From: Vibrio alginolyticus NBRC 15630 = ATCC 17749
Lineage (GTDB): Bacteria > Pseudomonadota > Gammaproteobacteria > Enterobacterales > Vibrionaceae
Direction: 5' to 3'
Assembly: GCF_000354175.2 (NCBI RefSeq)
Contig: NC_022349.1
Coordinates: 1,290,001 to 1,322,000 of the forward strand
DNA: 32,000 nucleotides
Shown: piece by piece, positions 7,434 to 29,647 of the stretch
Layout of the letters: each line of letters starts with the position of its first letter
Position numbering within the stretch: position 1 is the first letter of the stretch
The notes under the pieces: generated by a model
Database searches by the model: none
What the model saw: the letters and a program-made list of their open reading frames with translations, nothing else
What the model was told of the DNA's origin: nothing
Translations under genes and position numbers: made by a program

Positions 7434-7998
7434 GTTCTAATCCTCTTCGAGTGACGAGTCCTTTAAGCACAACGCCCTGACTCTTTACCCACTCCGTAAT
7501 GTGACCGCAGGCTTTGGGATAATTGCCATATTTGATTGCTTCGTAAATCCGAGTGTCAGAGCCGTCCTTATTTTTGCGAAACTTGGTACACCCGAAGTTG
7601 AAAACAAAGCTGGTAAATGCGTCAAATTGACCCGTGCTCATTTGCGCTCCTGAAATCCTTTCTGCATTGGTCACACATCGTTCGGCCGATTGAATGTTTT
7701 TCACCCAGTCGATCGCGACTTGCTCCAATGTGATTGGCGTATCTGGCACACCATGAGTATTCCCAATTCCATTCGTAGGAATACCTCCCGGACAAACGTA
7801 AGGGTTCTGCCGGCATCCCTCTGCATCACCAATCAACTTCAGTCCTTTAGGGGTGATGCGCAGCGTTCCTAAGTCTCGTTCCGATACCACAACTTGCCCA
7901 ATGGGCTGCGTCAATTCTGGTCCATAAACAGCCGTACCACCTGTTACCAAGCCGATCACAGCGACTACAGAACAAATGATGCGCTTAGTCAGTTTCAC
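7408..7998 (-). CDS. SAR endolysin, T4-lysozyme-like (GH24) muramidase
   Basis: The catalytic triad spacing E-x8-C-x5-T is present in DAEGCRQNPYVCPGGIPTNGIGNTHG. The N-terminal Gly/Ala-rich helix IICSVVAVIGLVTGGTAVYG resembles a signal-anchor-release domain. Confidence 0.85.
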   Translation of the reverse strand: MKLTKRIICSVVAVIGLVTGGTAVYGPELTQPIGQVVVSERDLGTLRITPKGLKLIGDAEGCRQNPYVCPGGIPTNGIGNTHGVPDTPITLEQVAIDWVKNIQSAERCVTNAERISGAQMSTGQFDAFTSFVFNFGCTKFRKNKDGSDTRIYEAIKYGNYPKACGHITEWVKSQGVVLKGLVTRRGLERDRCMEMD

Positions 7999-8194
7999 TC
8001 AGTGCTACTCCTTTTTCGCTAGCAATACGTTGCATTGCTCGCTTGTGCCAATAGTTCAATCCCAGTGCTGCAAGGCCAATCACTAGTGATAAAATGAAAT
8101 ACCACTGTTCAAATGTCAGCTTGCTGAAAGTCATTCCTGCCAATGACACAAGGTAAGCAACTCCACTGGTTAATTTGTCGAACCAATCTTTCAT
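7985..8194 (-). CDS. Holin, 2-TM class (pinholin-like)
   Basis: 69 aa with two hydrophobic segments and a charged C-terminus. Overlaps the endolysin start. Confidence 0.7.
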   Translation of the reverse strand: MKDWFDKLTSGVAYLVSLAGMTFSKLTFEQWYFILSLVIGLAALGLNYWHKRAMQRIASEKGVALSETD

Positions 8195-8198
8195 ATCG

Positions 8199-8405
8199 TT
8201 ACTCCAAATTAGCCTGGCAAGGGGCGCAAAACCGGCACCCCGCTATAGCTATCTGACGCCCTTCAGGGATAGGGTCACCACACTCAAGACATTCTTTTGC
8301 ACTCTCTCGTTCGCTTGTCTTCATAGACTGTTTAAGCTGGTTTGCGATTGCCATTTCAGTAAACTTGGTTTCGTTACTACTAGCATGGTCGATAAAGTCA
8401 GGCAT
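8199..8405 (-). CDS. DksA/TraR-family C4 zinc-finger protein
   Basis: 68 aa with CLECGDPIPEGRQIAIAGCRFCAPCQ, i.e. CxxC-x17-CxxC. Confidence 0.8.
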   Translation of the reverse strand: MPDFIDHASSNETKFTEMAIANQLKQSMKTSERESAKECLECGDPIPEGRQIAIAGCRFCAPCQANLE

Positions 8406-8425
8406 TCGTTCTCTCTCTGATAGGC

Positions 8426-8878
8426 TTAAAGCAAACCGCGGGTATCATCATTACTTAGGTATGAGATGCCATTAATGCGAACAAAGTGAGGGCTCGTCAC
8501 AAAGCCTTTAAGCTTGCGCTTGGTTTTATCACTGCTGTTTGGATCAACACTAAGTAAATCTGAGATTTGAAGCTTCACACCAAACAACTCTACTTTGTCT
8601 TCATCATCGCCAGTATTTGCATAGAACATACAGTCGTGTGGCTTAATACCGCGCCAACTGCCAGCTTCGCGAGCTTTTTGTTGAAGCTTACGGAAGTTGT
8701 TCAAGTCCAGCTCATACTCAACATCACAACTCACAGCTCCATGAGTAAATCCAGTGGGAATGCCGCGCTCTTTATCAACAGCAGACTCATCATTGATGGT
8801 TGCTGTAGCCGACTCCACATGAACCAAAATCCCCAGCATGTTTATGTCGAAGCTTCGCCCTGTATAACGAGAATTCAT
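8426..8878 (-). CDS. Tail tube protein (P2 FII position)
   Basis: 150 aa immediately downstream of the sheath-sized gene. Called on synteny and size only. Confidence 0.55.
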   Translation of the reverse strand: MNSRYTGRSFDINMLGILVHVESATATINDESAVDKERGIPTGFTHGAVSCDVEYELDLNNFRKLQQKAREAGSWRGIKPHDCMFYANTGDDEDKVELFGVKLQISDLLSVDPNSSDKTKRKLKGFVTSPHFVRINGISYLSNDDTRGLL

Positions 8879-8881
8879 TGT

Positions 8882-10012
8882 TTACTCCCCTAGTCGTTGA
8901 TTGAGCATGATGCCGATGGTGATCTTCACTGGGCACTCGTAAGGTGTCACAGCGAGTAGAATTTCAACTTCTTCACTATTAACCCATGTAATGGTGATGT
9001 CATCGTCTTGAGGTGGTTTGATTTCACCAGGGAACTCGTAATCACCGATTTTTTTCACTACCGCCATTTCACGGAGGTCTTGAGTGAAATACAGCTTTGC
9101 GCTGGCTTCACTGCCTGGTGTGGAATTGAACTCTCGATCAGCAATTCGTGCGATTGCTCGTACCCGTACTTTACGTGCTGCTTTCATGGCAACGCGAATG
9201 TGACGAATATCTTGATAATCACCACCAGGGACATCTAGCGTACGTCCAGTTGTCCAATATTGCCCCGGATAGTCCGGATACCACATCGGTACAGCGATTC
9301 GAGAAGCTTCTAGTGCTTTAAGTGTTGCTAGCTCTAATGGCTTTCCATCCTTATCTTTTGCTAATGCCATACTGCCGAGAATGCTGCCTGTTTTTACTCG
9401 TGCCGGTGAGTCAGCAATAGATACTTCTTGATTGGCCAACCGACCTGCATAAATGCCAACTGTAGAGTTTCCTTCGTGTACTTGTGGCACTACGGTGATG
9501 TATTCACTTGCAATGTTCTTTGGCACATTCACCGTTTGCGCTAACCACTCAGCCCATGTTTCACCGTCCTCGGAATCATTAATTCCTGGTAAGGAACAGA
9601 TCATGAAAACTTCTCGTCCAAGCTTGGCTTTAAGTTCATGCCGAAATGCGACTGCATCTTCAAGAGTGGACGCTCCAGTATTTGGCTTATCCAACACAAC
9701 AGCTTCAAAGCTTGATGTCTCATTGGCTTTAAAAACCGCAGCCTGCCAACTATCTGATGGGTTTAAAACGATCACACCGGCAGTCCAGTTCTGTTTCCCA
9801 TTTAACTGAGCAGCTTTTAGCGTGAGCATGTGTACAGGGTCGATGTTATCGAACGTGCTGTCTGAAAAATCCGTGGTGTTATCCACCATAATTAGGTTGC
9901 GCTCTGTTCCTGCAACTGTGCCGTACACAACAAACAGAAAGTGAAATTCAACGCCCGGGATCGGTCCGCGCATCATGTTCAGAATGTTAATAATGACGGT
10001 AGGCCATGCCAT
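8882..10012 (-). CDS. Contractile tail sheath protein (P2 FI position)
   Basis: 376 aa. Called on position between the tail-completion and tube genes, and on size. Confidence 0.6.
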   Translation of the reverse strand: MAWPTVIINILNMMRGPIPGVEFHFLFVVYGTVAGTERNLIMVDNTTDFSDSTFDNIDPVHMLTLKAAQLNGKQNWTAGVIVLNPSDSWQAAVFKANETSSFEAVVLDKPNTGASTLEDAVAFRHELKAKLGREVFMICSLPGINDSEDGETWAEWLAQTVNVPKNIASEYITVVPQVHEGNSTVGIYAGRLANQEVSIADSPARVKTGSILGSMALAKDKDGKPLELATLKALEASRIAVPMWYPDYPGQYWTTGRTLDVPGGDYQDIRHIRVAMKAARKVRVRAIARIADREFNSTPGSEASAKLYFTQDLREMAVVKKIGDYEFPGEIKPPQDDDITITWVNSEEVEILLAVTPYECPVKITIGIMLNQRLGE

Positions 10013-14487: not shown

Positions 14488-16275
14488 ATGGCATATTCTC
14501 CCGAAATACGACAAGCCGCCCGAGCACTCTATTTGAAAGCTTGGACGCCACGTGAAATCGCTACCGAACTGAACCTGAATAATGAGCGCATCATTTATTA
14601 CTGGGCAGATAAATTCGGTTGGCGCGATATGTTGCGTGAACAAACCATTGATGAAGCGATAGCAAATCGAATTCAAACACTGCTTGAACTTGTTGACCCC
14701 AGTAAAAACCAACTAGACATGCTCGATCGGCTTATCAAGCATCACGCTGCATTAAAGAAACAAAGGGCACAAGAAAAGCAGCAAGGTGAGCAACCTTTAA
14801 ATACAGGGAATAAAAAGCACGACGGTACGAATAGCCGTAACAGCCAGAAATCTAGCAGTAATTCAAAGTCTACCAAGAAACGTAAAAGTAAAAAGAATGA
14901 CATCAGCGAACTGAGTGAAGATGACTTTGTCACATGGCATGACTCCCTGTTTGCCTATCAGCATGTAATGCGCAACAACATAAAACAGCGTATTCGAAAC
15001 ATTCTTAAGTCCCGCCAGATTGGCGCAACTTACTACTTCAGTGGTGAAGCGTTAGAAGATGCGATTCTGACCGGCGATAACCAGATCTTTTTGTCAGCAT
15101 CACGAGCTCAAGCGGAAGTTTTCCGCAGCTACATCATTGCTATTGCAAAAGAGTTCTTAGACATAGAGCTAACTGGAAACCCGATCATTCTCTCCAATGG
15201 TGCTGAACTTCGTTTTTTATCTACCAATAGCAAAACCGCGCAAAGTTACCACGGCCATGTTTATGTAGATGAGTATTTCTGGATACCGAAGTTTGACGAA
15301 CTAAACAAACTCGCTTCGGCAATGGCTACCCATAAAAAATGGCGTAAAACCTACTTTTCGACACCATCATCGAAAATGCACCAGGCATATCCGTTTTGGA
15401 CGGGCGACCAATGGCGAAAAGGCAGAGACTCACGCGCCAAAATTGAGTTTCCAACGTTCGATGAATATCGCGATGGGGGTGTACTTTGCCCTGATAAGCA
15501 GTGGCGATATGTCGTCACGATTGAAGACGCTGCTGCAGGCGGCTGTGAACTATTTGATATTGAAGAACTGAAGGACGAATACAGTAAAGACGATTTCGAT
15601 AACCTGTTTATGTGTATCTTCGTCGACGGCTCTTTGTCTGTATTCAAATTCTCTGACCTCGAAAAAGGCATGGTTGACTCTGCCCACTGGCAGGACTTCA
15701 AGCCGAAAACAAAATCACCGTTTGCCGGGCGTGAAGTATGGTTGGGTTATGACCCTAGCCGAACGCGAGACAATGCTTGTTTGGTAGTAATAGCTCCACC
15801 GGCAGTTGCAGGTGAAAAGTTTCGTGTCTTAGAGAAGCACTACTGGAAAGGACTTAACTTCCAGTACCACGTGAGTGAAATTGAAAAGGTATTTCAACGC
15901 TACAAAGTCACTTACATAGGCGTTGATACTACAGGCATTGGTGGCGGTGTTTGGGACTTAATTAAGAAAAAGCACCCTCGTGAGGCCCACGCCATACATT
16001 ACAGCAACGAAAACAAGAATCGCCTAGTAATGAAGATGATCGATATCGTAGAAGCAAAACGACTGCAGTTTGATGCCGAACACAAAGACATTGCTATGGC
16101 ATTTATGGCGATTAAACGAGTGCCGACCAATAGCGGTAACGCTATGACCTTTAAAGCAGAGCGAAGTGAAACAACAGGCCACGCTGATGCGTTTTGGGCC
16201 ATTTCACACGCCATTATCAATGAGCCGCTAGACCACAACACACCAACGAAATCAACCTGGGCGACTGCAGCATGA
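14488..16275 (+). CDS. P: Terminase large (ATPase) subunit, gpP-like
   Basis: The true start is [19 protein letters not shown]... at 14488 (595 aa; P2 gpP is about 590 aa). The upstream extension in the ORF track overlaps the scaffold gene. Contains the [18 protein letters not shown] block. Confidence 0.85.
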
Positions 16276-17303
16276 ACAATCAAAAAGACAAACTAGTACA
16301 ACAGGAGCAACATGTGGAATCGGTTTATCACCTTGACTCCACACCTGAGGCAATTGACTCAACGAGTTGGATGACTTCATATTCTGAGCTTTTCTATAAC
16401 GACACTGATGGTTACTGGGAACCTCCAATCTCACGCCAGGGCTTAGCAGAAACTTCACGTGCAAACGCCTATCACGGGTCTTTACTTAAAGCTCGAGCAA
16501 ATTATGTTGCTGCCCGTTTTATTTCAGGTGGCGGTTCAAGACGTCGGCAGATTCAATCTTTTTGTAATAACTACTTCACGTTTGGTGATGCCGCATTTTT
16601 AAAAATCCGCGACCACTTCAAGCGTGTTGTGCGCTTGTTTCCTCTACCGACCATGTATCTACGTAGACGTAAAAATGGGGACTTCGTTTTGCTAGAGCGA
16701 GACAACAAGCAACGAGTATACAAAGAGAATGACATCATTTTTTTGCCTCAAGAAGATCTGCAGCAACAAGTTTATGGATTACCTGACTATCTAGGTAGTT
16801 TACAAAGTAGCTTACTAAACCGTGATGCAACGCTATTTCGTCGTCGCTATTACAAGAACGGTGCACACATGGGATTCATTTTTTACGCCACGGATCCAAA
16901 CCTTAGTGATGACGACGAACAAATGCTGAAGGAAAAAATCGCGAGCTCCAAAGGGGTGGGTAACTTTAGAAGTATGTTTGTTAATATTCCAGGCGGTGCG
17001 GAAAAAGGGATTCAGCTAATCCCGGTGGGCGATATCGCGACAAAAGATGAATTTGAGCGAATCAAAAACATCACTGCGCAAGATATTCTCGTAGGCCATC
17101 GCTTCCCTATAGGAAAAGCAGGAATAATTCCCCAGGGAACGACTAATCTGGGTGACCCCGTCAAAATTGGCAGTGAGTATGCCAAAGACGAAATCATACC
17201 TGTATGCGAATTAATTATGGATGAAGTTAACAACGATCCAGAGATAAGAAATATCAAAAATCTACATTTAAAATTTGATACTACGTTTGGAGAATGCTCA
17301 TAA
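16272..17303 (+). CDS. Q: Portal protein, gpQ-like
   Basis: 343 aa. Its ATG overlaps the terminase stop. The P-then-Q order on one strand opposite O-N-M-L matches P2. Confidence 0.8.
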
Positions 17304-17368: not shown

Positions 17369-17620
17369 ATGAGAGTATTGTGTCCGGAGTGTGGTTGTAA
17401 AAGCCGAATTCAAAAATCCAATCGACTATCCAATAGTCATGCCGATTTATATTGCAGTTGTAGTGACCCAGAATGCGGGCATAGTTTTGTGATGAACTTG
17501 TCTTATAGTCATACTTTAAGCCCATCGGCAAAAACAACTAGTCAAATAGCTTTTGATTTATGTAAGGCGTTGCCGCCAGAGGCACGACAACAGCTCAAAC
17601 ATCAACTCTCGATACTATAG
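17369..17620 (+). CDS. ogr: Ogr/Delta-family zinc-finger late transcription activator
   Basis: CPEC-x22-C-x4-C spacing (CPECGCKSRIQKSNRLSNSHADLYCSCSDPEC). 83 aa. Confidence 0.8.
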   Translation: MRVLCPECGCKSRIQKSNRLSNSHADLYCSCSDPECGHSFVMNLSYSHTLSPSAKTTSQIAFDLCKALPPEARQQLKHQLSIL

Positions 17621-17848
17621 TGAATCTTGTATAAACGCCGTGCTATCTACTTCAGAAGCCATCTCGACAATGCTCAAGATGGCTTTTTGTTTTTCGGAGT
17701 CCAACTGCCCTTTTGTATCAGCCAGTATTAAGCCAGCAATATATGCACCTGCCGCTCTAGTCCTCTCTGTTGCCTCACTATTAGCCACACCATCAATGAC
17801 GATTTCTAAAGCAGACAACAAGATATCGTTTTGATTTTTATTCGACAT
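17615..17848 (-). CDS. Small acidic helical protein behind an SOS-box promoter; candidate Tum-like antirepressor (function unproven)
   Basis: The preferred start is MSNKNQNDILL at 17848, preceded by AAGGGTG. The longer GTG-initiated version would run through the LexA box. Confidence 0.5.
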   Translation of the reverse strand: MSNKNQNDILLSALEIVIDGVANSEATERTRAAGAYIAGLILADTKGQLDSEKQKAILSIVEMASEVDSTAFIQDSL

Positions 17849-17879
17849 ATCAACACCCTTACCAATCATCAGTGAAATA

Positions 17880-17899
17880 TACTGTATATCCATACAGTT
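17880..17899. promoter_or_regulatory. LexA (SOS) box TACTGTATATCCATACAGTT overlapping a minus-strand promoter
   Basis: CTGT(17882-17885)-N8-ACAG(17894-17897). On the minus strand TGGAAA (17899-17904)-N17-TATATT (17876-17881) brackets the box. Confidence 0.75.
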
Positions 17900-17935
17900 T
17901 TCCACAGTGGTTTTTAGATACCAGTCACTAGTTTG

Positions 17936-17948
17936 TTATGACGACACA
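17936..17948 (+). repeat. Left copy of the 13-bp direct repeat TTATGACGACACA bracketing the cargo segment
   Basis: Exact match to 20775-20787. The flanks are also similar (GTTTG/GTTC before, AA after one variable base). Confidence 0.7.
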
Positions 17949-18216
17949 TAAAGTAGCTAAAACGTATCTCTGCTGGAGAATGTTAGTTGATTAGCAGTGA
18001 GGAGATTTCATTTTGTAATTACTCATTTGAAGCATTTCAATTTTAAAGCAGTATTGCTGCATGACCTTCAGTTTGAAGGTTACTTTTCAATCAAACAAGA
18101 AAGCTGAACACTGATTAATATCACTAATTAAACATCTGCTAATTGAAGAGAATTATTAAAGGTTGCAATATCAGTATTGAAAATTATGTTTTAACACAAG
18201 CAACAATCTGACTTTT

Positions 18217-18681
18217 ATGAGAACTATAACAACAGAAATTCTATTATCATTATTACTTGGAGCTGTGCCGATAATATTGCTCAGCAATCAACCTGATTTT
18301 TCAGCGGCAGAAAGCTTATCGTCTTTGAATCCTGGTGACATTGTACTCAACTACTTCTTATACTTATTATGTATTCATTTAGTTATTTGGTTTTTAAATA
18401 GTCAAGTTTTAAAAACAAACCAGTCTATTTCAGCAACGCTACAAAGGGCACACGAGTTCACTCACAAGCTCGGGTTTGCCATTCATGGTGTTTATCGTGT
18501 TATAGCAGGTGCTGTTCCAGCGGCAATTTGGTTTGAAATTGATAAGCATGGATTTGTTCAAGGTTGGCAAGCGATAACTATTTTCAGTGTGGTTTTATCA
18601 ATATCTAGCTTTATCGCTAGTGTAGCTTTAGCCAAAGCTACTAACTATACAGCACCAAGAGCACTTCTTTTCGGTAAATAA
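18217..18681 (+). CDS. Integral membrane protein (about 4 TM), unknown function
   Basis: 154 aa with four hydrophobic segments. AT-rich cargo context. No good Shine-Dalgarno sequence. Confidence 0.5.
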   Translation: MRTITTEILLSLLLGAVPIILLSNQPDFSAAESLSSLNPGDIVLNYFLYLLCIHLVIWFLNSQVLKTNQSISATLQRAHEFTHKLGFAIHGVYRVIAGAVPAAIWFEIDKHGFVQGWQAITIFSVVLSISSFIASVALAKATNYTAPRALLFGK

Positions 18682-18755
18682 CATCAAAATTATAGTAGGC
18701 ATAAATATCAAGTTGCTTACATTGCAAACAAATGTAACTTTTAGAGAGACTATTA

Positions 18756-19193
18756 ATGAACAAATCAATCATTCTGGCCAGTGTTTTCATTGCATTAACT
18801 GGCTGTGCTTCACAACCTAATAATGAAAAATTCAATGTACATACAGCAGACTTTACAAAATCTAGTGACTTAAACCTATGTGCTGTCTATGGGGCCAGAG
18901 CGAATCGCTCTATTGAAGCTAAGAACGAACTAGTTAAGAGAGGTGTTTTCTCTGATGCTGAGTGGGAAAGCATTGCAGATAACAAAGTATCTGTCGGAAT
19001 GACAGAGTGTGCTGTTAAAGCGGCCTACTCTGTTAATTTTATAAAACAGAAAACCACAAAATTCAAAAATGGTGATAAGGGTATGACTTTCTTTTATGAT
19101 TGTAAGTCAAGCAATGCTACGTATTGTCCATTCACAAAAGTAGACTTTGTAAATGGAAAAGTCTCTGCAGTGTCTAAAGTTCAAAAAATATAA
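18756..19193 (+). CDS. Lipoprotein, unknown function (superinfection-exclusion candidate)
   Basis: Signal peptide with lipobox MNKSIILASVFIALTGCASQ. GAGAGA lies upstream of the ATG. Confidence 0.65.
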   Translation: MNKSIILASVFIALTGCASQPNNEKFNVHTADFTKSSDLNLCAVYGARANRSIEAKNELVKRGVFSDAEWESIADNKVSVGMTECAVKAAYSVNFIKQKTTKFKNGDKGMTFFYDCKSSNATYCPFTKVDFVNGKVSAVSKVQKI

Positions 19194-19303
19194 CACCAAA
19201 AGCTAAAAAATCTTGATCTAATTTAAGTGTACCAAACCAGTAGGATGAGAATCACTAGCTTGGTACATTTATTACCAGAATCTGAGTAATGACTACAATC
19301 TCA

Positions 19304-19882
19304 TCAATCAAATGGATCTGTCAGATTAGAAGAAAATACGAGTCCATTAAGCTGATTTTGTTCACACATAGCCTTGAACCTCTCTGTACAGTATAAGTTG
19401 CTGGCCCCTTCTAATCTTGATTTAAAGATCACTTTATCTTTCACATCATCATCAATGAATGCAAGAACCTCTAACCCATCAGGGCTTCCATATGAGATCT
19501 TCTCTACACACTTTTGTCTATCTTCTTTTCCAAAAGTCAGCGATGTATATAAATACCATTGTTCACTTTGATAATTGACAGGTAAAAAATCCCCGCTTTC
19601 AGATAAGAAACTATTTAAAGCTTCATATGCTCTCGGCGATAAAACAAGATATGTTCGTAACCATAAGCTAATATCAGGCAATACGGAGTTATCGGTTAAT
19701 ACATCTTCAAACTCGACCTCCGCAGACTTCCAAATATCTTTCAGAGATTTATTTTCAACAGCCTGCAATAAGATTCTCTCAAAATAGTCGAAATCCCCCA
19801 ACTGGGTAGCGATTTCATCTGGGCCAGAACATACCGACTGAAACTTAGTTAAATCATCTGTAATTTTATAAACCGTCATCAT
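19304..19882 (-). CDS. Cognate immunity protein for the AHH nuclease (DUF1629/Imm11-like by resemblance)
   Basis: Its ATG overlaps the toxin TGA (GGATGATGA, an ATGA overlap). The block LVLSPRAYEALNSFLSESGDFLPVNY resembles polymorphic-toxin immunity families. Confidence 0.6.
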   Translation of the reverse strand: MMTVYKITDDLTKFQSVCSGPDEIATQLGDFDYFERILLQAVENKSLKDIWKSAEVEFEDVLTDNSVLPDISLWLRTYLVLSPRAYEALNSFLSESGDFLPVNYQSEQWYLYTSLTFGKEDRQKCVEKISYGSPDGLEVLAFIDDDVKDKVIFKSRLEGASNLYCTERFKAMCEQNQLNGLVFSSNLTDPFD

Positions 19883-20610
19883 CCTTTCCAAACTTCATTC
19901 TTAGCTTCCAAGACCTCTTTAGGGTAGGTGCCACTCTTTAACTCCATTTTGACCCGAAGTAAGTTAGCCTCAAAGTGCTGTTTACTCGGAATACCCTTCG
20001 AAAATTTGGAACTAATCCAAGTTTCATAATTAAATGTATGGATCGAACGGTGAGCCGGAGACTTAGGTGCTTCCCAGTTAAAGTCCGTATGCTTCGCATA
20101 ATTTGTTAACCAAACACCATTTACGGGCGCATTTATGCCAATTTTATGCATGTGCAAATTTAATCTTGCGGCTCTCATTTCTGCTTTTCTAAACCTTCCC
20201 GAGCCAGGAATGATATGGTGAGGCTCATGGTTTTTAGTTGGTTTAGGCTCTCCTGCAGCGGTTAGATTATTAGCTAGTTTCGTCGTCGGATGATGCTTTT
20301 CAACGAACAACTCTTTCGCATTTTTTTTTAAGTTTTCTGCAGAGTACGATTGCAACTTAGCTTGCATATCTTCAACTCGAGCATGAGCAATGAGTTCAAT
20401 CCTCATTTTTTTCAAAAACCTCAAGTCTTGTGCTTCAAACTGCAATCGTTTTGCTCTTTGCTGTTCAGTTTCACCCGCAGGTGGAGCCACACGATACTTG
20501 CTATAGAAATCGTCGACTAACGCATCAAAACGATCTAAGGCCAACTCAGCTGCAGTTGGATTACTAGGACGATTCGTTTTTCGTCCAACTATACTCAAAT
20601 TATGCTTCAT
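19879..20610 (-). CDS. AHH-type HNH/EndoVII-fold nuclease toxin with no recognisable delivery domain
   Basis: C-terminal motifs HEPHHIIPGSGRF ... GINAPVNGVWL ... HRSIHTFNY. The preferred start is MKHNLSIVG at 20610, with GGAGGG 8 nt upstream. Confidence 0.7.
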   Translation of the reverse strand: MKHNLSIVGRKTNRPSNPTAAELALDRFDALVDDFYSKYRVAPPAGETEQQRAKRLQFEAQDLRFLKKMRIELIAHARVEDMQAKLQSYSAENLKKNAKELFVEKHHPTTKLANNLTAAGEPKPTKNHEPHHIIPGSGRFRKAEMRAARLNLHMHKIGINAPVNGVWLTNYAKHTDFNWEAPKSPAHRSIHTFNYETWISSKFSKGIPSKQHFEANLLRVKMELKSGTYPKEVLEAKNEVWKG

Positions 20611-20774
20611 ACTCGTATCCCTCCAACAAACAAAGCCGTTGGATAACATTCACATAACTGACGAGCAAATAATCAATAGCCTTTATGTGGCCTACAGCTC
20701 AGATTTTTATGCAAGCAATAGCACTTTAAATCAACTTTAAGAAATAGCGGTTCACTACTCTAACCTTTAAGTTC

Positions 20775-20787
20775 TTATGACGACACA
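20775..20787 (+). repeat. Right copy of the 13-bp direct repeat TTATGACGACACA
   Basis: Exact match to 17936-17948. Lies 7 nt beyond the stop codon of the replication gene. Confidence 0.7.
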
Positions 20788-20794
20788 AACCGGA

Positions 20795-22882
20795 CTAACT
20801 CAATATTGGAAAAAGCCGCCCCTCAAGATAATCTGCCGTAATGCTATGCCAATAAGAAAGCTCACTTTCATCAACTTCCATGTGTTGTATAGATTCATGT
20901 AATAGTGATTGCCAATAGGACTGATTCTCCTTAAATCGCTGATATTCAGATTGATAGAAGTGGCTCGCGTCTTGTTTTATATCGCTCAGGTCCAAATCCC
21001 TGCAGTTCAATGACCACCCTCTTGCACCAGCAGCCCAAACCATAAACTTGTCTACTTTATCCTTAGCCAGTTCTCCCTCAAACGTAATGCAGAAGCGATT
21101 GCTCGTATTCACGTGTACTCCCCTGCTATGCAAGTTCTGACTCAGCTTTTCGGCCTGCTTTTCCAAACGGATGACTCTCTGATAAAGCTTGTTCTGATAC
21201 TCCTCAGATTTCTGCTGCTTTTTGGCGATCGCTTTGGCCTTGATGGTTTGCTCTTTGGCATTTCGTAGCTTGCGGATTTGCCGCTTAATTGGCTTTTTCC
21301 ACTGCTCAAGTTTGTAGCCCAACTCCTTAATTATTGCGGTCATATTGCCAGCTTCAAACGAAGCAAGAGTTTCCCAGGCAGGAGCTCTTGAGCACTTCGC
21401 GATATTGTATCTATTTCCCTTGATTAGCCCTTGATCAGCATTTTCACCTTTCGCGGCATAGCCAACAGCCTTGATAATGTAGGAACCGGCGGCTTTTGGC
21501 TTTTTGATTCGCTCTAGTTTCGCAAATCCATGTCCCCATATTTTTTCAAGTCGCTTAGCCCAAGGGCTAAAGAGATGCTCTGGTACCGTCCAGCGTAGCA
21601 AAATATGAACGTGCGGATTAGGCTCTCCATCTTCATTAGCTGGACACTCGGCTACCCATATGTAATGGAAATCAGCAGGCAAGTAAGTCGGGCCAACATC
21701 GCCGGGCTGAACATGTTTAGCAACTTTCTCCTGAGATAAGTCGCAGTACTTTCGTCCACTATCTTTATCAACTTGGATGGTATGGTCCGCAACCCAGCCG
21801 CGTTGATACATTTTCTTTGCGCCATCAAGAAAACGAGAGACTTCTTTACCTATTGTTGTCTCTAAAGTTTTTTCCATCGAGAACTCTTGCTTGGGCTTTT
21901 GTTTAAGATCGCAATATGGACCGACTATGACATTGCCCTGGTTCATAGCTTTAACACGCTTACTATCTGAGGTTGGAAACAGCCAGTATTCTCCACCAAT
22001 ATCCGTGATTGGTTGGCCAACTTTCTTTTCGCCACGCTTGGGATGTATTGTCACCATGTTGCGCTTATAGATTATTGGGTGATGCGATCCCATACTGACA
22101 CACTCACTTCCATCCAACATTCCACCGAATATGGCCATCCGTTGTGCCTTGGTGAAAGTCAGCGTCAGAAAAGTAGAGAAACCACCATGGCAAGCTGCAG
22201 TGTAAGCCCCTGCCTCAAAGATTTTAGAAACAGAACGGGACGTCAGCTTTTCCGAGAACCTCTCACCACTGTTTTCCGCAGGCGCAGCACTAGATGGCGT
22301 TTCGGTTACCGCCTGAAACTTATAAGTTTCATTCCAAGACCGGTGCATTAGCTGCATTGAAATAGGAATCTTTTTAGGTTCGCCTTGTCCTCGTTTTCCA
22401 TTCTGATTGAGAATGGCAGGTTTGGAGCGCTCGTTCGTTTCATACAAAGCATCATGGCTAAAGTTGGCGTCGGCATTGCTGATGATACTTTTAGGGCGTA
22501 GAGACTTGCTCAGACTCATCAACTGCTTAATTTGCTTGTCTTTTCTGTGGCGAAATTTCTCTGTCGGACTTTTGCGCCCTTTGACTAGCCTATACTCTTC
22601 GGCGATTCTCGCCGCCGCTTCGCGGTCGTGTTTCGAGCAATAATTTACAGATTTATAGAAGTCAGTTCGCTCTTGAAGATCTCGTTCGCGCTTAGACTTT
22701 CGATTGGGAACACGGTCATATATCGCTATTTTTTTGACCATGCCACTATCTAGAAGTGCTTGTTCTTGGTCTGAGTAAATTTTGGAACCTAAAAAACCAG
22801 CATTATAGCTGGCGTCATTTTTCCTGATTCGGTCCAGGGGCATCACTGCCCCACCGATATAGAGAAGATCAGATTGGTTCAT
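20795..22882 (-). CDS. HUH rolling-circle replication initiator (P2 gpA position)
   Basis: 695 aa. HUH-like motif NPHVHILLRW and a Tyr motif GSYIIKAVGYAAKG. Last large gene of the early operon. Confidence 0.6.
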   Translation of the reverse strand: MNQSDLLYIGGAVMPLDRIRKNDASYNAGFLGSKIYSDQEQALLDSGMVKKIAIYDRVPNRKSKRERDLQERTDFYKSVNYCSKHDREAAARIAEEYRLVKGRKSPTEKFRHRKDKQIKQLMSLSKSLRPKSIISNADANFSHDALYETNERSKPAILNQNGKRGQGEPKKIPISMQLMHRSWNETYKFQAVTETPSSAAPAENSGERFSEKLTSRSVSKIFEAGAYTAACHGGFSTFLTLTFTKAQRMAIFGGMLDGSECVSMGSHHPIIYKRNMVTIHPKRGEKKVGQPITDIGGEYWLFPTSDSKRVKAMNQGNVIVGPYCDLKQKPKQEFSMEKTLETTIGKEVSRFLDGAKKMYQRGWVADHTIQVDKDSGRKYCDLSQEKVAKHVQPGDVGPTYLPADFHYIWVAECPANEDGEPNPHVHILLRWTVPEHLFSPWAKRLEKIWGHGFAKLERIKKPKAAGSYIIKAVGYAAKGENADQGLIKGNRYNIAKCSRAPAWETLASFEAGNMTAIIKELGYKLEQWKKPIKRQIRKLRNAKEQTIKAKAIAKKQQKSEEYQNKLYQRVIRLEKQAEKLSQNLHSRGVHVNTSNRFCITFEGELAKDKVDKFMVWAAGARGWSLNCRDLDLSDIKQDASHFYQSEYQRFKENQSYWQSLLHESIQHMEVDESELSYWHSITADYLEGRLFPILS

Positions 22883-27187: not shown

Positions 27188-27208
27188 GGCTCCTAATGGA
27201 GCCCTTTT
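27188..27208. terminator. Bidirectional hairpin terminator between convergent genes
   Basis: AAAAA-GGCTCC-TAAT-GGAGCC-CTTTT. Overlaps the methylase stop codon. Confidence 0.6.
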
Positions 27209-28094
27209 ACTTTAGTGGTTTACCAAGATTTTTTAACTTTCTCAGTTCATTAAATGAGATGTCAGGTTTAAACAATACCTTATGGATAGTTGGGCTATGA
27301 ATGATAAGCTCAGAGCCTTTGCGTTTTGTTTGTGCCGTATATGTTAGACCAAATGGTTGTGGATCAAACTCTGCGTATATACCAGCAATCTCGGGAGTAT
27401 CATCATAGGTTACAATCCAAGGATGCTGAATATTTCTCACACTGCGGTAAAGACGATAGTGATCATCATGCTTAAAGAAATTTTGGTAAAGACCTTTGCC
27501 TTTAACATAGTAAGGCGGGTCGATATTAACGAGACATGGGCCGTCGATATCTGGTAGGTATTCATCAATAAACAATGTAGCGTCGACATTAGTTAAAACT
27601 ATGTTTTCCCTACGCGCAGCAATAGCCCTAATTTGCTGAGTCAATCTTTCTTTGTTATATCTACAGTCTAGTAGGTAGTTACCATTTTGCTCTAGACCAC
27701 CGATCACACCAGCTTTAATGATCCCAGAACGGTTTGTTCTATTTAAGAAAAACGTCGCAAATCCCAATTGAAGAGAGTTAGTCTTGTCATTGGAATAAAC
27801 TTCCTTTTGTCTGAACCACTCTTCTATTGTAACGTCGGTGTTTTCTATCAACTGACAAAGCTCATCAGTTCGATTTAACACGCTATACCAGAAAGCATGA
27901 ATCGCAGGGTCTAAATCGTTAACCCACACATTTTCAACATGCCCTTCTAAAAGTAGATACCATGCGATTGCACACCCACCGGCGAATGGCTCCACGTACG
28001 TTCCCCCCTCAAGCCCATTTAGCTTGAGAGTCTCCACGACATATGCGGTAAGCTTGGACTTCCCACCTGGATACCTTAGCGGTGAATAAAACAT
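27207..28094 (-). CDS. Dam-family (D12 class) N6-adenine DNA methyltransferase
   Basis: LRYPGGKSKL, VEPFAGGCAIA (FxGxG) and VNIDPPYYVKG (DPPY), in the alpha-class motif order. Confidence 0.85.
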   Translation of the reverse strand: MFYSPLRYPGGKSKLTAYVVETLKLNGLEGGTYVEPFAGGCAIAWYLLLEGHVENVWVNDLDPAIHAFWYSVLNRTDELCQLIENTDVTIEEWFRQKEVYSNDKTNSLQLGFATFFLNRTNRSGIIKAGVIGGLEQNGNYLLDCRYNKERLTQQIRAIAARRENIVLTNVDATLFIDEYLPDIDGPCLVNIDPPYYVKGKGLYQNFFKHDDHYRLYRSVRNIQHPWIVTYDDTPEIAGIYAEFDPQPFGLTYTAQTKRKGSELIIHSPTIHKVLFKPDISFNELRKLKNLGKPLK

Positions 28095-29647
28095 TATCTT
28101 TCCTTCAATTCAATCAGGACTTTTAGCAGGGGCGTAAGCATATCCCAAAAGCCATTTACAAATCTATAATCAATTTTATGGGTTTCATGTCCATGCATAT
28201 AGCTGTTCAACGTATCTAAACTGTGTTCATTGTTTGGCTGAAGTAGCTTACTGATAACCTTGTTTGCTTGTGTTTCCTTTACATGACTATCGCACAAAAA
28301 CTTAAGACGTTGCTGGAGGATAGTATGATTGTAGTCTTTGTTGTACTGTTTGGCCACGAGCTTTTCTAATTCATTTCTACGAATAAAATCATCGACTGAA
28401 AGATCAAGAAATACGCGAAGAGTTATAGATGCCGAATGAGTATAAAGATGCACTGGCACTTTTTTTAGTTCAGCAAATAGGCTATTGAGTTTTGCGCTAT
28501 GCACCTTGATCGTCGTTTGGGGAATGACCATTCGAAGTCTATTACTCTTAAGCTTAACTGGTACGTCCAACTTAATTTGAGTAGAACCAGATACACTAGC
28601 TTGCTCATTAACGTTATTGGTTGTTTCAGCTTTAGGTTCCGTACCATTACTAGGACTGTTCGGTTCGATTTTTTCTGGAGAGTCTATCGATGTTGAAAGT
28701 ACTTTTTCTTTTCCATTTTCTGGGAAAGTAACTTCTGGAAGTACAGCAAATATACTCTCGTTCCTTTCTGGTATCGAACGAGTGTTCACAGCAAAGTCTA
28801 AGTCATTGGGTTCAATATTAAACATCAGTTTAAGAAACTTACCATACGCATGGAGAAAACTATCTTCGTTCGAAGTTATTTTAACTTTCATTCCATCAAA
28901 CTGAACTCCCCACCGATCTCGAACTGACTCACTAGCAAACCAACGCTCTAGAATAGTCATAGATATACGGTTGCTATAAATCAGCTCTTTTTCTTCCTCA
29001 CTCATCAAGTCTGTAACTTGTTTACGAGTAGCTAAATCACGCAACTGAACATATCTGAGTGCCTGAATTATCTCTGAACGAGTAAAACCTGTGACTGATA
29101 TAATTTTATCAATATCGTGTTCGTACTCATCATACAAACTCACAATGAAGCGCTGTTGCTGCAAACGCTGCCACGGTTTCTGAATAGAGCTAGTCGAATG
29201 ACGCTGTAAAACATACCAGCGTGTTGCTTCTAGGCTTGGTGCTACACAGACTTGCACTTTTTCAATGTCGTTTCGGTCAATGAGCTTTGACTGCTGCAAA
29301 ATGAACTTACGAATTGATTTAGGCGCTTTCTCTGGATTCCGCAGCAGTTTGAGAGCCAAAATACGACGATTTCCTTCTGCAACAATATAGCGTTCAGTCT
29401 CGTCTTTCCAAACAACAATGGGTTCAAAATCCATAAAGCCGAGTTTGATGATCGATTTAATGAGCTCAAAAAAGCTCGCTTTGTCTGAAGGTTCATTGAT
29501 AATTTCTTCAGCAAAGTCAGCTAACTTTATTCTCGATTGGCTTTCTGCCGTATCAAAACGGGGGTTTTCTTTCCAGAGCTTCAAATAGTCAACCGAACGG
29601 GGTGTACGCTTTTCCCACCACTTATTTTTGTTACCAACCACTTTCAT
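28094..29647 (-). CDS. ParB/Srx N-terminal-domain protein with long linker and uncharacterised C-terminal helical domain
   Basis: YIVAEGNRRILALKLL (ParB GxRR box). Ser/Asn/Pro-rich linker (residues ~315-355). C-terminal domain with LNSYMHGHETH. Its stop overlaps the methylase start (TAATG). Confidence 0.6.
   Translation of the reverse strand: MKVVGNKNKWWEKRTPRSVDYLKLWKENPRFDTAESQSRIKLADFAEEIINEPSDKASFFELIKSIIKLGFMDFEPIVVWKDETERYIVAEGNRRILALKLLRNPEKAPKSIRKFILQQSKLIDRNDIEKVQVCVAPSLEATRWYVLQRHSTSSIQKPWQRLQQQRFIVSLYDEYEHDIDKIISVTGFTRSEIIQALRYVQLRDLATRKQVTDLMSEEEKELIYSNRISMTILERWFASESVRDRWGVQFDGMKVKITSNEDSFLHAYGKFLKLMFNIEPNDLDFAVNTRSIPERNESIFAVLPEVTFPENGKEKVLSTSIDSPEKIEPNSPSNGTEPKAETTNNVNEQASVSGSTQIKLDVPVKLKSNRLRMVIPQTTIKVHSAKLNSLFAELKKVPVHLYTHSASITLRVFLDLSVDDFIRRNELEKLVAKQYNKDYNHTILQQRLKFLCDSHVKETQANKVISKLLQPNNEHSLDTLNSYMHGHETHKIDYRFVNGFWDMLTPLLKVLIELKER

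Follow-up and report, generated by a model that had tools for sequence, protein, structure and literature searches.

Genetic organization of the locus

The stretch of DNA analyzed here (hereafter the window) comprises 32,000 nucleotides (nt) of Vibrio alginolyticus NBRC 15630 = ATCC 17749 (contig NC_022349.1, positions 1,290,001 to 1,322,000) and corresponds to Vibrio phage ValB1MD-2 (NC_055862/MT662115; Peduoviridae, Valbvirus), a P2-like phage whose host is V. alginolyticus; the sole difference from the RefSeq phage record, NC_055862.1, is one extra base at position 28921. Our subject is a pair of genes in the window that encode a predicted AHH nuclease toxin of 243 amino acids (aa) and, immediately downstream, a putative immunity protein of 192 aa (Table 1). 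The V. alginolyticus ATCC 17749 lysogen has the identical pair under the accessions AGV17054/AGV17053. An earlier interpretation made from the letters of the DNA (the sequence-only reading) had described this pair as phage-borne and as lying in a prophage hotspot, and both descriptions are borne out: the window is a P2-like phage, and the pair has the gpA-like replication gene on one side and the Ogr and portal genes on the other, i.e., it occupies the gpA-portal interval where P2 carries old and tin and which Rousset et al. (2022; PMC9122126) showed to act as a defence hotspot. Since phage L9-1 (94% identity across the structural genes, as far as window position 17905) has only one 264-bp open reading frame (ORF) and no insert in its portal-replication interval, the segment of the window that holds the pair is accessory cargo. 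The guanine-plus-cytosine content of this insert is 30-40%, as against 43-48% in the phage core.

The toxin ATG is at position 20610, with a Shine-Dalgarno sequence (GGAGGG, 20624-20619) 8 nt upstream, and because homologues begin at the same methionine, the start that yields the 243-aa protein is the right one. The downstream ORF had been said to start on the toxin stop codon, and it does so: the immunity ATG (19882-19880) overlaps the toxin TGA (19881-19879) as ATGA, an arrangement that indicates translational coupling of the immunity gene to the toxin gene. The pair follows the early operon on the same strand, and no terminator is predicted between the two. Upstream of the toxin gene is a conserved block (Table 1) that is common to alleles only 66-73% identical to one another, as seen when four alleles, taken from P2-like phages and one chromosome, were aligned. 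Considering that this block is conserved across such alleles, the cassette may bring its own promoter or operator, and we regard the block as a putative element of this kind. A generic promoter and terminator scan gave results at background level and did not call the block.

Table 1. Features of the window discussed in the text. Positions are those of the window, except for the gpA remnants, which are given on their own contigs.
Feature	Position	Strand	Evidence or remark
AHH nuclease toxin gene (predicted), 243 aa, pI (isoelectric point) 9.9 (RefSeq YP_010109759)	19879-20610	-	Pfam AHH; phrog_17620 E=4e-61
N-terminal family-specific helical-hairpin domain, aa 1-103	20302-20610	-	AlphaFold2
AHH nuclease core, aa 104-243	19882-20301	-	E104-x-HHPT109, P/A-H131-H132, N160/N164-G-x-W167, H187, H191, Y195
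Immunity gene (putative), 192 aa, pI 4.35, divergent Imm11	19304-19882	-	phrog_17602 E=8e-35
Conserved upstream block (putative promoter/operator)	20635-20679	-	TTGATT (20676-20671), 17-nt spacer, GTGAAT (20653-20648)
gpA remnants	L002 9747-9828; L007 ~9672-9860		compared with window 20807-20888
Accessory insert in gpA-portal hotspot	17906-20794	.	the pair and two unrelated convergent genes
gpA-like replication initiator, 695 aa	20795-22882	-	hotspot flank; Pfam REP_ORF2-G2P, phrog_38601
Portal gene (gpQ-like)	16272-17303	+	opposite hotspot flank; phrog_68 E=8e-118, RefSeq annotation
Ogr/Delta zinc-finger late activator, 83 aa	17369-17620	+	Pfam Ogr_Delta E=9e-17; phrog_603
Multi-transmembrane protein, 154 aa, at least 3 hydrophobic segments	18217-18681	+	no PHROG or PADLOC match
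Predicted lipoprotein, 145 aa, signal peptide ending LTGC	18756-19193	+	weak DUF4947 match only; no PHROG or PADLOC match
AAA_15/AAA_21 ATPase, 517 aa	25628-27181	+	directly after CI repressor gene
PD-Lambda-5 B, methyltransferase-like	27207-28094	-	PADLOC E=2e-118
PD-Lambda-5 A gene, 517 aa	28094-29647	-	PADLOC E=5e-189

A predicted AHH-family nuclease with a family-specific N-terminal domain

The sequence-only reading had assigned the 243-aa protein an AHH-type HNH/EndoVII nuclease domain, and RefSeq already labels the product 'AHH domain-containing protein'. Our searches agree, since Pfam AHH (PF14412) matched aa 115-204 at 40.1 bits (E=3.9e-10), where the gathering cutoff is 22.3. The Tox-AHH signature consists of [AG]HH, N, H, H and Y (Zhang et al., 2012; PMC3482391), and the motifs quoted in the sequence-only reading (HHIIP, NGVWL and HxxxH...Y) are found in the toxin as HEPHHIIPG (H131, H132), NGVWL (N164, G165, W167) and H187xxxH191 followed by Y195. 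When 67 intact relatives were aligned, H131, H132, N164, H187 and Y195 proved invariant and H191 was present in 66. Residue 130 was alanine in 52 of the relatives and proline in 14; because it is proline here, the ValB1MD-2 allele reads PHH where most relatives read AHH. Just upstream of the Pfam match lies a further invariant block that is specific to the clade, E104-x-H106-H107-P108-T109. As judged by these residues, the toxin is a basic His-Me-finger nuclease of the AHH family in which all catalytic residues are intact. By analogy with the AHH/Imm11 pairs of Myxococcus and the DNase/Im pairs of colicins, such an enzyme would be expected to degrade DNA non-specifically.

The first part of the protein had been described as a helical region of about 130 aa without delivery features. 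The helical character and the lack of a known domain stand, and the length does not: since the conserved core specific to the family already starts at E104, the N-terminal domain spans ~100 aa, and it is a conserved domain of the family in its own right. AlphaFold2 modelled it as a helical hairpin with helices at residues 20-39 and 49-93 and a predicted local distance difference test (pLDDT) score of about 80-90; the score was 70 for the whole toxin and below 50 for the nuclease core. Foldseek searches with the toxin model yielded no match in the PDB, and profile searches of the toxin and immunity families against PDB sequences gave nothing meaningful. At E<=1, the Pfam search of the toxin returned AHH alone, and the N-terminal domain had no match in Pfam, NCBIfam or PADLOC; neither NCBIfam nor PADLOC matched the toxin or the immunity protein at any point. 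We found no signal peptide or known delivery domain in the toxin, and none of the known N-terminal markers of type VI secretion systems (T6SS), i.e., PAAR, MIX, FIX and RIX, where MIX and FIX are covered as far as Pfam and NCBIfam include them. A RIX identity was considered for the arginine-containing N-terminus and rejected, as hhalign gave a probability of 0.4% against the RIX domain of WP_080175994, the single RIX example compared (a RIX-HNH protein from the supplement of the RIX paper).

In a library of 1.84 billion proteins, the N-terminal domain matched only AHH proteins of ~230-260 aa or short fragments and was joined to no other toxin domain. Where the toxin matched long proteins (a few, of 400-730 aa), it did so via the AHH core only, with E about 1e-5. 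Because there is no interchangeable N-terminal module, the pair falls outside polymorphic toxins as these are defined by Zhang et al. (2012).

A putative immunity protein from a divergent Imm11 branch

RefSeq labels the 192-aa product 'hypothetical protein', and the sequence-only reading had likened it to the immunity proteins of polymorphic toxins. Taken alone, it reached Pfam Imm11 (PF07791) with E=0.015 and 15 bits (cutoff 22.1), over the C-terminal 53 aa only. The family as a whole gave a clearer result: Imm11 was matched by 9 of 11 members and then by 36 of 41, with a best E of 1.1e-7, no competing family recurred among the members searched, and four strong members carry a precomputed PF07791 match. 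Imm11 is a listed partner of Tox-AHH (Zhang et al., 2012; PMC3482391). These results uphold the likeness, and the family as a whole is clearly a divergent Imm11 branch, of which the 192-aa protein is a putative member. The AlphaFold2 model of the protein (pLDDT 35) was unusable. No helix-turn-helix, ribbon-helix-helix or AbrB DNA-binding domain was detected in the immunity family. On the same analogy as for the toxin, i.e., with the Myxococcus AHH/Imm11 and colicin DNase/Im pairs, the immunity protein would block the nuclease by tight direct binding in the producing cell.

Distribution and genomic context

A profile scan of one genome per species produced 79 loci, nearly all of them from marine Gammaproteobacteria (Vibrio, Photobacterium, Rheinheimera, Arsukibacterium, Pseudoalteromonas, Marinomonas, Microbulbifer and others), often with several copies of the cassette per genome. 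In about 75 of these, the AHH gene is followed directly by an Imm11-like gene in the same order and orientation, and since this arrangement recurs so widely, the pairing is not due to chance. No third gene is conserved with the pair: 752 neighbouring ORFs formed 642 clusters, the largest of which occurred in 8 loci. Neighbours that recur include UmuDC, integrases, UvrD-PD-(D/E)xK helicase-nucleases, ResIII helicases and Endonuclease_NS, while integrase (7) and UvrD helicase (4) were the commonest families among the 146 genes that immediately flank the pair. Xre/MbcA-type genes lie near some relatives. On a Proteus mirabilis island (L024 1-1217), a gene for an Rhs-repeat polymorphic toxin (DUF6531, RHS) lies ~8 kb from the cassette with an integrase between them; it is the sole classical polymorphic-toxin gene seen near any copy and probably belongs to an unrelated neighbouring island.

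The carriers are diverse. The cassette occupies the same site in two further P2-like prophages, stands a short way upstream of antiterminator Q, with YoeB/YefM and CcdAB nearby, in a prophage with an SU10-type portal, and is found between DUF3164 and Mor in a Mu-like prophage, so that, with these included, it is present in at least 4 unrelated temperate-phage backbones. It also occurs beside Rep3 and PemK/MazE on ~100-kb plasmids of Vibrio parahaemolyticus, in integrase, Tn3 and metal-resistance islands, and in plain chromosomal islets. IMG/VR contained 20 viral contigs with the pair, on several backbones. Prophages related to these contigs account for at least 6 of the 79 genome loci, and even as a lower bound this figure shows phages to be one carrier among several. 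A scan of the viral contigs with the immunity profile recovered close relatives only and is uninformative on orphan immunity genes in phages.

Mobility and allele exchange

To follow the cassette across carriers, the window can be set beside the near-isogenic viral contig L112. The flanks of the two are 96-99% identical, whereas the toxins are only 66% and the immunity proteins 58% identical. The L112 allele, in turn, is 95.6-97.7% identical over ~1.7 kb to copies on V. parahaemolyticus plasmids and on a chromosome, and the segment that L112 shares with these non-phage copies begins ~250-330 bp upstream and ends ~55-140 bp downstream of the two genes. Just upstream of the V. parahaemolyticus plasmid and chromosomal cassettes, a remnant of the 3' end of gpA, 82-190 bp long, has been kept (Table 1), which argues for transfer from a P2-like phage into plasmids and chromosomes. 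The pair behaves as an autonomous ~1.7-kb unit that moves between phages, plasmids and chromosomes with its own upstream block.

The two proteins co-diverge (Spearman rho=0.63), with a mean pairwise identity of 41% for the toxin and 32% for the immunity protein. Within the toxin, the N-terminal domain (34%) diverges fastest, and the core is at 50%. Between near-identical phages, the toxin gene showed 0-1 non-synonymous against 4-8 synonymous codon changes, and the immunity gene 3-12 non-synonymous against 4-23 synonymous changes.

Immunity genes can also outnumber toxin genes. Extra immunity genes (2-3 each) stand beside the pair in about 10 loci, though none is present in the window. The Mu-like prophage of Marinomonas spartinae (L023 8655-11853) has one AHH gene followed by four tandem 195-aa Imm11-like genes, placed between the Mu early genes (MuA, MuB, DUF3164) and Mor; the four are of two types in the order ABAB, with 83-85% identity inside each type and about 50-55% across the two. 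Two further contigs, L123 and L115, were noted along with this prophage, and the related viral contig L115 contains two separate AHH cassettes. Conversely, a split or truncated toxin gene stands beside an intact immunity gene in about 8 of the 79 loci. These include a widespread chromosomal locus of V. parahaemolyticus (L135-L139, ~7619-8926), where the toxin is frameshifted (136 + 116 aa) and the 191-aa immunity gene is intact; this locus lies in a variable region a few kb from an Imm49-family gene, and the split fragments occur on hundreds of contigs.

Comparison with characterized systems

The pair is best filed with the AHH/Imm11 kind of toxin-immunity system, within which it forms a compact clade of fixed architecture on mobile elements. 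Its nearest characterized counterparts are MXAN_0050/MXAN_0049 of Myxococcus xanthus and their paralogues, which act in T6SS-dependent kin discrimination (PMC12077131, PMC12077181). These, too, consist of a short stand-alone AHH toxin followed by an Imm11 gene, with a basic toxin, an acidic immunity protein, an N-terminal region outside the nuclease core, additional imm11 genes at some loci and several divergent pairs per genome. In contrast to the present clade, beside which neither PAAR nor any other T6SS gene recurs, the Myxococcus pairs require an adjacent PAAR gene for delivery; their N-terminal 40-70 aa are highly variable, whereas here a helical hairpin of ~100 aa is conserved across the clade, and their carriers are not the phages, plasmids and islets on which the present clade is found.

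Within the host genus, the VP1415-type T6SS1 effectors of V. parahaemolyticus (PMC9765294) likewise combine an AHH toxin domain with a downstream immunity gene. However, they have a recognized PAAR-like or MIX N-terminus and are encoded in or next to T6SS clusters or auxiliary modules, and neither holds for the phage protein. The pair WP_025789713/WP_025789712 of plasmid pVA1 (bioRxiv 10.1101/2024.06.03.597196) resembles ours in its two overlapping genes on a mobile element, in N-terminal ~100 aa that contain no known loading domain and in having no adjacent T6SS genes. Membership of the same family was ruled out, since the pVA1 toxin belongs to a different, pore-forming family; moreover, its N-terminus recurs on other toxin domains and its T6SS1 dependence was shown experimentally. 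The P2 genes old and tin and the other defence genes carried at the gpA-gpQ hotspot (Rousset et al., 2022; PMC9122126) share with the pair the position between replication and portal genes, the orientation to the early operon and the swapping of cargo between near-identical phages, but old and tin encode unrelated proteins with a demonstrated anti-phage phenotype, while the pair here matches no PADLOC model.

MuF-type toxins of temperate phages reportedly combine a phage-encoded toxin domain with a downstream immunity gene, as the pair does, and are said to be fused to a head-morphogenesis domain and to lie in the structural module; the AHH toxin has no such domain, and its carriers extend beyond phages. 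Colicins E2, E7 and E9 likewise couple a His-Me-finger DNase with a small, acidic immunity protein whose gene comes directly after it on a mobile element. They differ from the pair in their large receptor-binding and translocation domains, their lysis gene, a different nuclease subfamily and an unrelated immunity fold.

Possible biological roles

The reading that we favour, with a probability of roughly 0.45, is that the locus is a two-gene toxin-immunity cassette carried as accessory cargo, which arms the lysogen against related bacteria through delivery of the toxin. Lysogenic conversion would then provide the lysogen with a nuclease lethal to cells that lack the cognate immunity, and with this immunity as well. 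As an orphan cargo, the toxin would exit through a secretion system whose genes lie elsewhere, the host T6SS being the most plausible, and the N-terminal helical domain of ~100 aa would serve as its loading domain; as a side effect, loss of the carrier would become costly. That the toxin reaches other cells is favoured by the additional immunity genes in tandem and by the intact immunity genes that stand next to decayed toxins, and the same observations, with the decayed toxin locus lying next to an Imm49 gene, suggest exposure to incoming toxins. In addition, all characterized AHH/Imm11 pairs are delivered toxins (PMC12077131, PMC12077181), divergent alleles have been replaced between near-isogenic phages, and the immunity gene diverges faster than the toxin, all of which speak for antagonism between bacteria. 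There is also a precedent in the plasmid-borne orphan effector-immunity pair of Vibrio described above, the unrecognized N-terminus of which is that of a T6SS1-dependent effector (bioRxiv 10.1101/2024.06.03.597196).

Several observations weigh against delivery. Each Myxococcus homologue adjoins a PAAR gene (PMC12077131), but in the present clade no PAAR, VgrG, Hcp or adaptor gene (DUF4123, DUF1795, DUF2169) was seen in 11 Pfam-annotated contexts, no cluster of such genes recurred among the 752 neighbouring ORFs, and no such family had two or more matches among the 146 flanking genes. The sequence-only reading had seen no delivery domain in the toxin, and this holds for known domains; none is encoded nearby either. 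Furthermore, since the N-terminal domain was never found on another toxin domain, it does not behave like MIX, FIX and RIX, which occur with many different toxins. The contexts are also typical of toxin-antitoxin and defence genes, i.e., the old/tin hotspot of P2, the vicinity of YoeB/YefM and CcdAB, and that of Rep3 and PemK/MazE. Finally, a literature search that included locus tags, accessions and the phage name returned no paper on, and no experiment with, this protein or clade.

The strongest competing explanation is that the pair is an intracellular module of toxin-antitoxin type, in which the nuclease stays inside the cell and is freed from a labile antitoxin by loss of the carrier (addiction) or by phage infection (abortive infection). 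The freed nuclease would destroy the DNA of cell and invader, and the prophage would thereby exclude competitors and stabilize itself. The sequence-only reading had leaned this way, and we retain the idea as possible though on balance doubtful; it is not favoured over the classical role, given the tandem arrays of divergent immunity genes and the intact immunity genes beside decayed toxins, neither of which would be expected of an antitoxin that serves only to restrain its own toxin. The location speaks for it, since the pair is exactly in the gpA-portal hotspot, the site of old and tin in P2 and of many defence systems in P2-like phages of E. coli, and unannotated cargo of hotspots, when tested in P4, proved mostly defensive. 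At a second locus, this prophage also has PD-Lambda-5 and an OLD/AriA-like ATPase, and relatives of the pair lie beside YoeB/YefM and CcdAB in a prophage, beside Rep3 and PemK/MazE on plasmids, and near UvrD-PD-(D/E)xK, ResIII and Xre/MbcA-type genes. The toxin shows neither a signal peptide nor a known delivery domain, about 80 loci lack any linked delivery gene, in contrast to the PAAR-linked loci of Myxococcus, and the N-terminal domain is never combined with another toxin. Fixed architecture and multiple copies per genome are as in toxin-antitoxin systems, and the two-gene operon structure and the co-divergence would fit a type II module. Set against this, no AHH/Imm11 pair is known to act in such a way, neither protein has a PADLOC match, no known toxin-antitoxin family was matched in Pfam or PADLOC, the immunity protein has no detected DNA-binding domain for autoregulation, and most loci (at least 73 of 79) lie outside prophages akin to the viral contigs with the pair. 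A more specific version, which we consider unlikely, holds that temperate phages and plasmids have domesticated an AHH/Imm11 pair of polymorphic-toxin type as an intracellular abortive-infection or addiction module, with the N-terminal domain as its sensor or regulatory part. It would explain the sites at which the cassette is found (the old/tin hotspot of P2, the lambdoid-type accessory region by toxin-antitoxin modules, the Mu early region and plasmid maintenance regions) and, if true, would be the first AHH/Imm11 system for anti-phage defence or stabilization.

The remaining explanations tie the toxin to the phage itself. Delivery by the phage, whether by colicin-like release on prophage-induced lysis or by packaging into virions and injection, would accord with the presence of the cassette in at least 4 unrelated temperate-phage backbones and with its place on the same strand downstream of the early operon, with no predicted terminator between. 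We consider it highly improbable, however, as 243 aa are too few for the receptor-binding and translocation domains of a colicin, the cassette is always in accessory or early regions of phages rather than among the morphogenesis genes, the same allele is found on plasmids and chromosomes that have no phage genes, and most loci are not in recognizable prophages. Scarcely to be credited is a nuclease of the phage life cycle (for example an HNH partner of terminase, a degradase of host DNA or a homing endonuclease), the downstream gene being a mere regulator. His-Me/HNH nucleases are common in phages and the pair is near replication and packaging genes, but closely related L9-1 does not have the insert at all, the domain is of the toxin-type AHH kind with an Imm11 partner, and the cassette is found mostly outside phages and is exchanged as divergent alleles. 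The terminase-partner and homing-endonuclease versions were rejected, as L9-1 has no insert and the pair is mostly non-phage.

The identity of the pair is ordinary and already annotated, and the more useful part of this work is that the passage of the cassette from phage to plasmid and chromosome can be traced unusually clearly; also of interest are the immunity arrays borne by phages and the role of the pair in a defence hotspot. If the cassette arms the host's secretion system, temperate phages would redraw the kin-discrimination boundaries of Vibrio, a lysogen becoming instantly incompatible with its non-lysogenic siblings, and the N-terminal helical domain would be a new loading signal with which other effectors could be found. 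If, instead, the module is intracellular, it would link the polymorphic-toxin and anti-phage defence repertoires.

Other genes of the hotspot and a second defence locus

Besides the pair, the insert contains two convergent genes, for a multi-transmembrane protein and a predicted lipoprotein (Table 1), which could be superinfection-exclusion or surface-modifying morons. They are not in L9-1, and other ORFs take their place in L112. We considered these genes as parts of the module and rejected this, since they accompany the pair at no other locus. On the portal side, the Ogr/Delta ORF is unannotated in RefSeq, is called in related prophages too, and at its 3' end abuts or overlaps an annotated hypothetical gene on the opposite strand (17615-17893).

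Elsewhere in the window, the PD-Lambda-5 defence system is complete at 27207-29647. RefSeq annotates the region of its A gene as two overlapping hypothetical coding sequences; because of the extra G at 28921 relative to NC_055862.1, the A gene is one intact ORF in the window, and the phage record probably contains either a frameshift error or a real pseudogene at this point. The ATPase that follows the CI repressor gene gave as its best PADLOC matches AriA, ATPase-Toprim, PtuA, GajA and AbiL (E 1e-13 to 1e-18), and it may act in defence as an ATPase of OLD-like or PARIS-like type, although a partner gene is not obvious. Taken together, PD-Lambda-5 and this ATPase suggest that the interval between repressor and integrase is the second defence locus of the phage.

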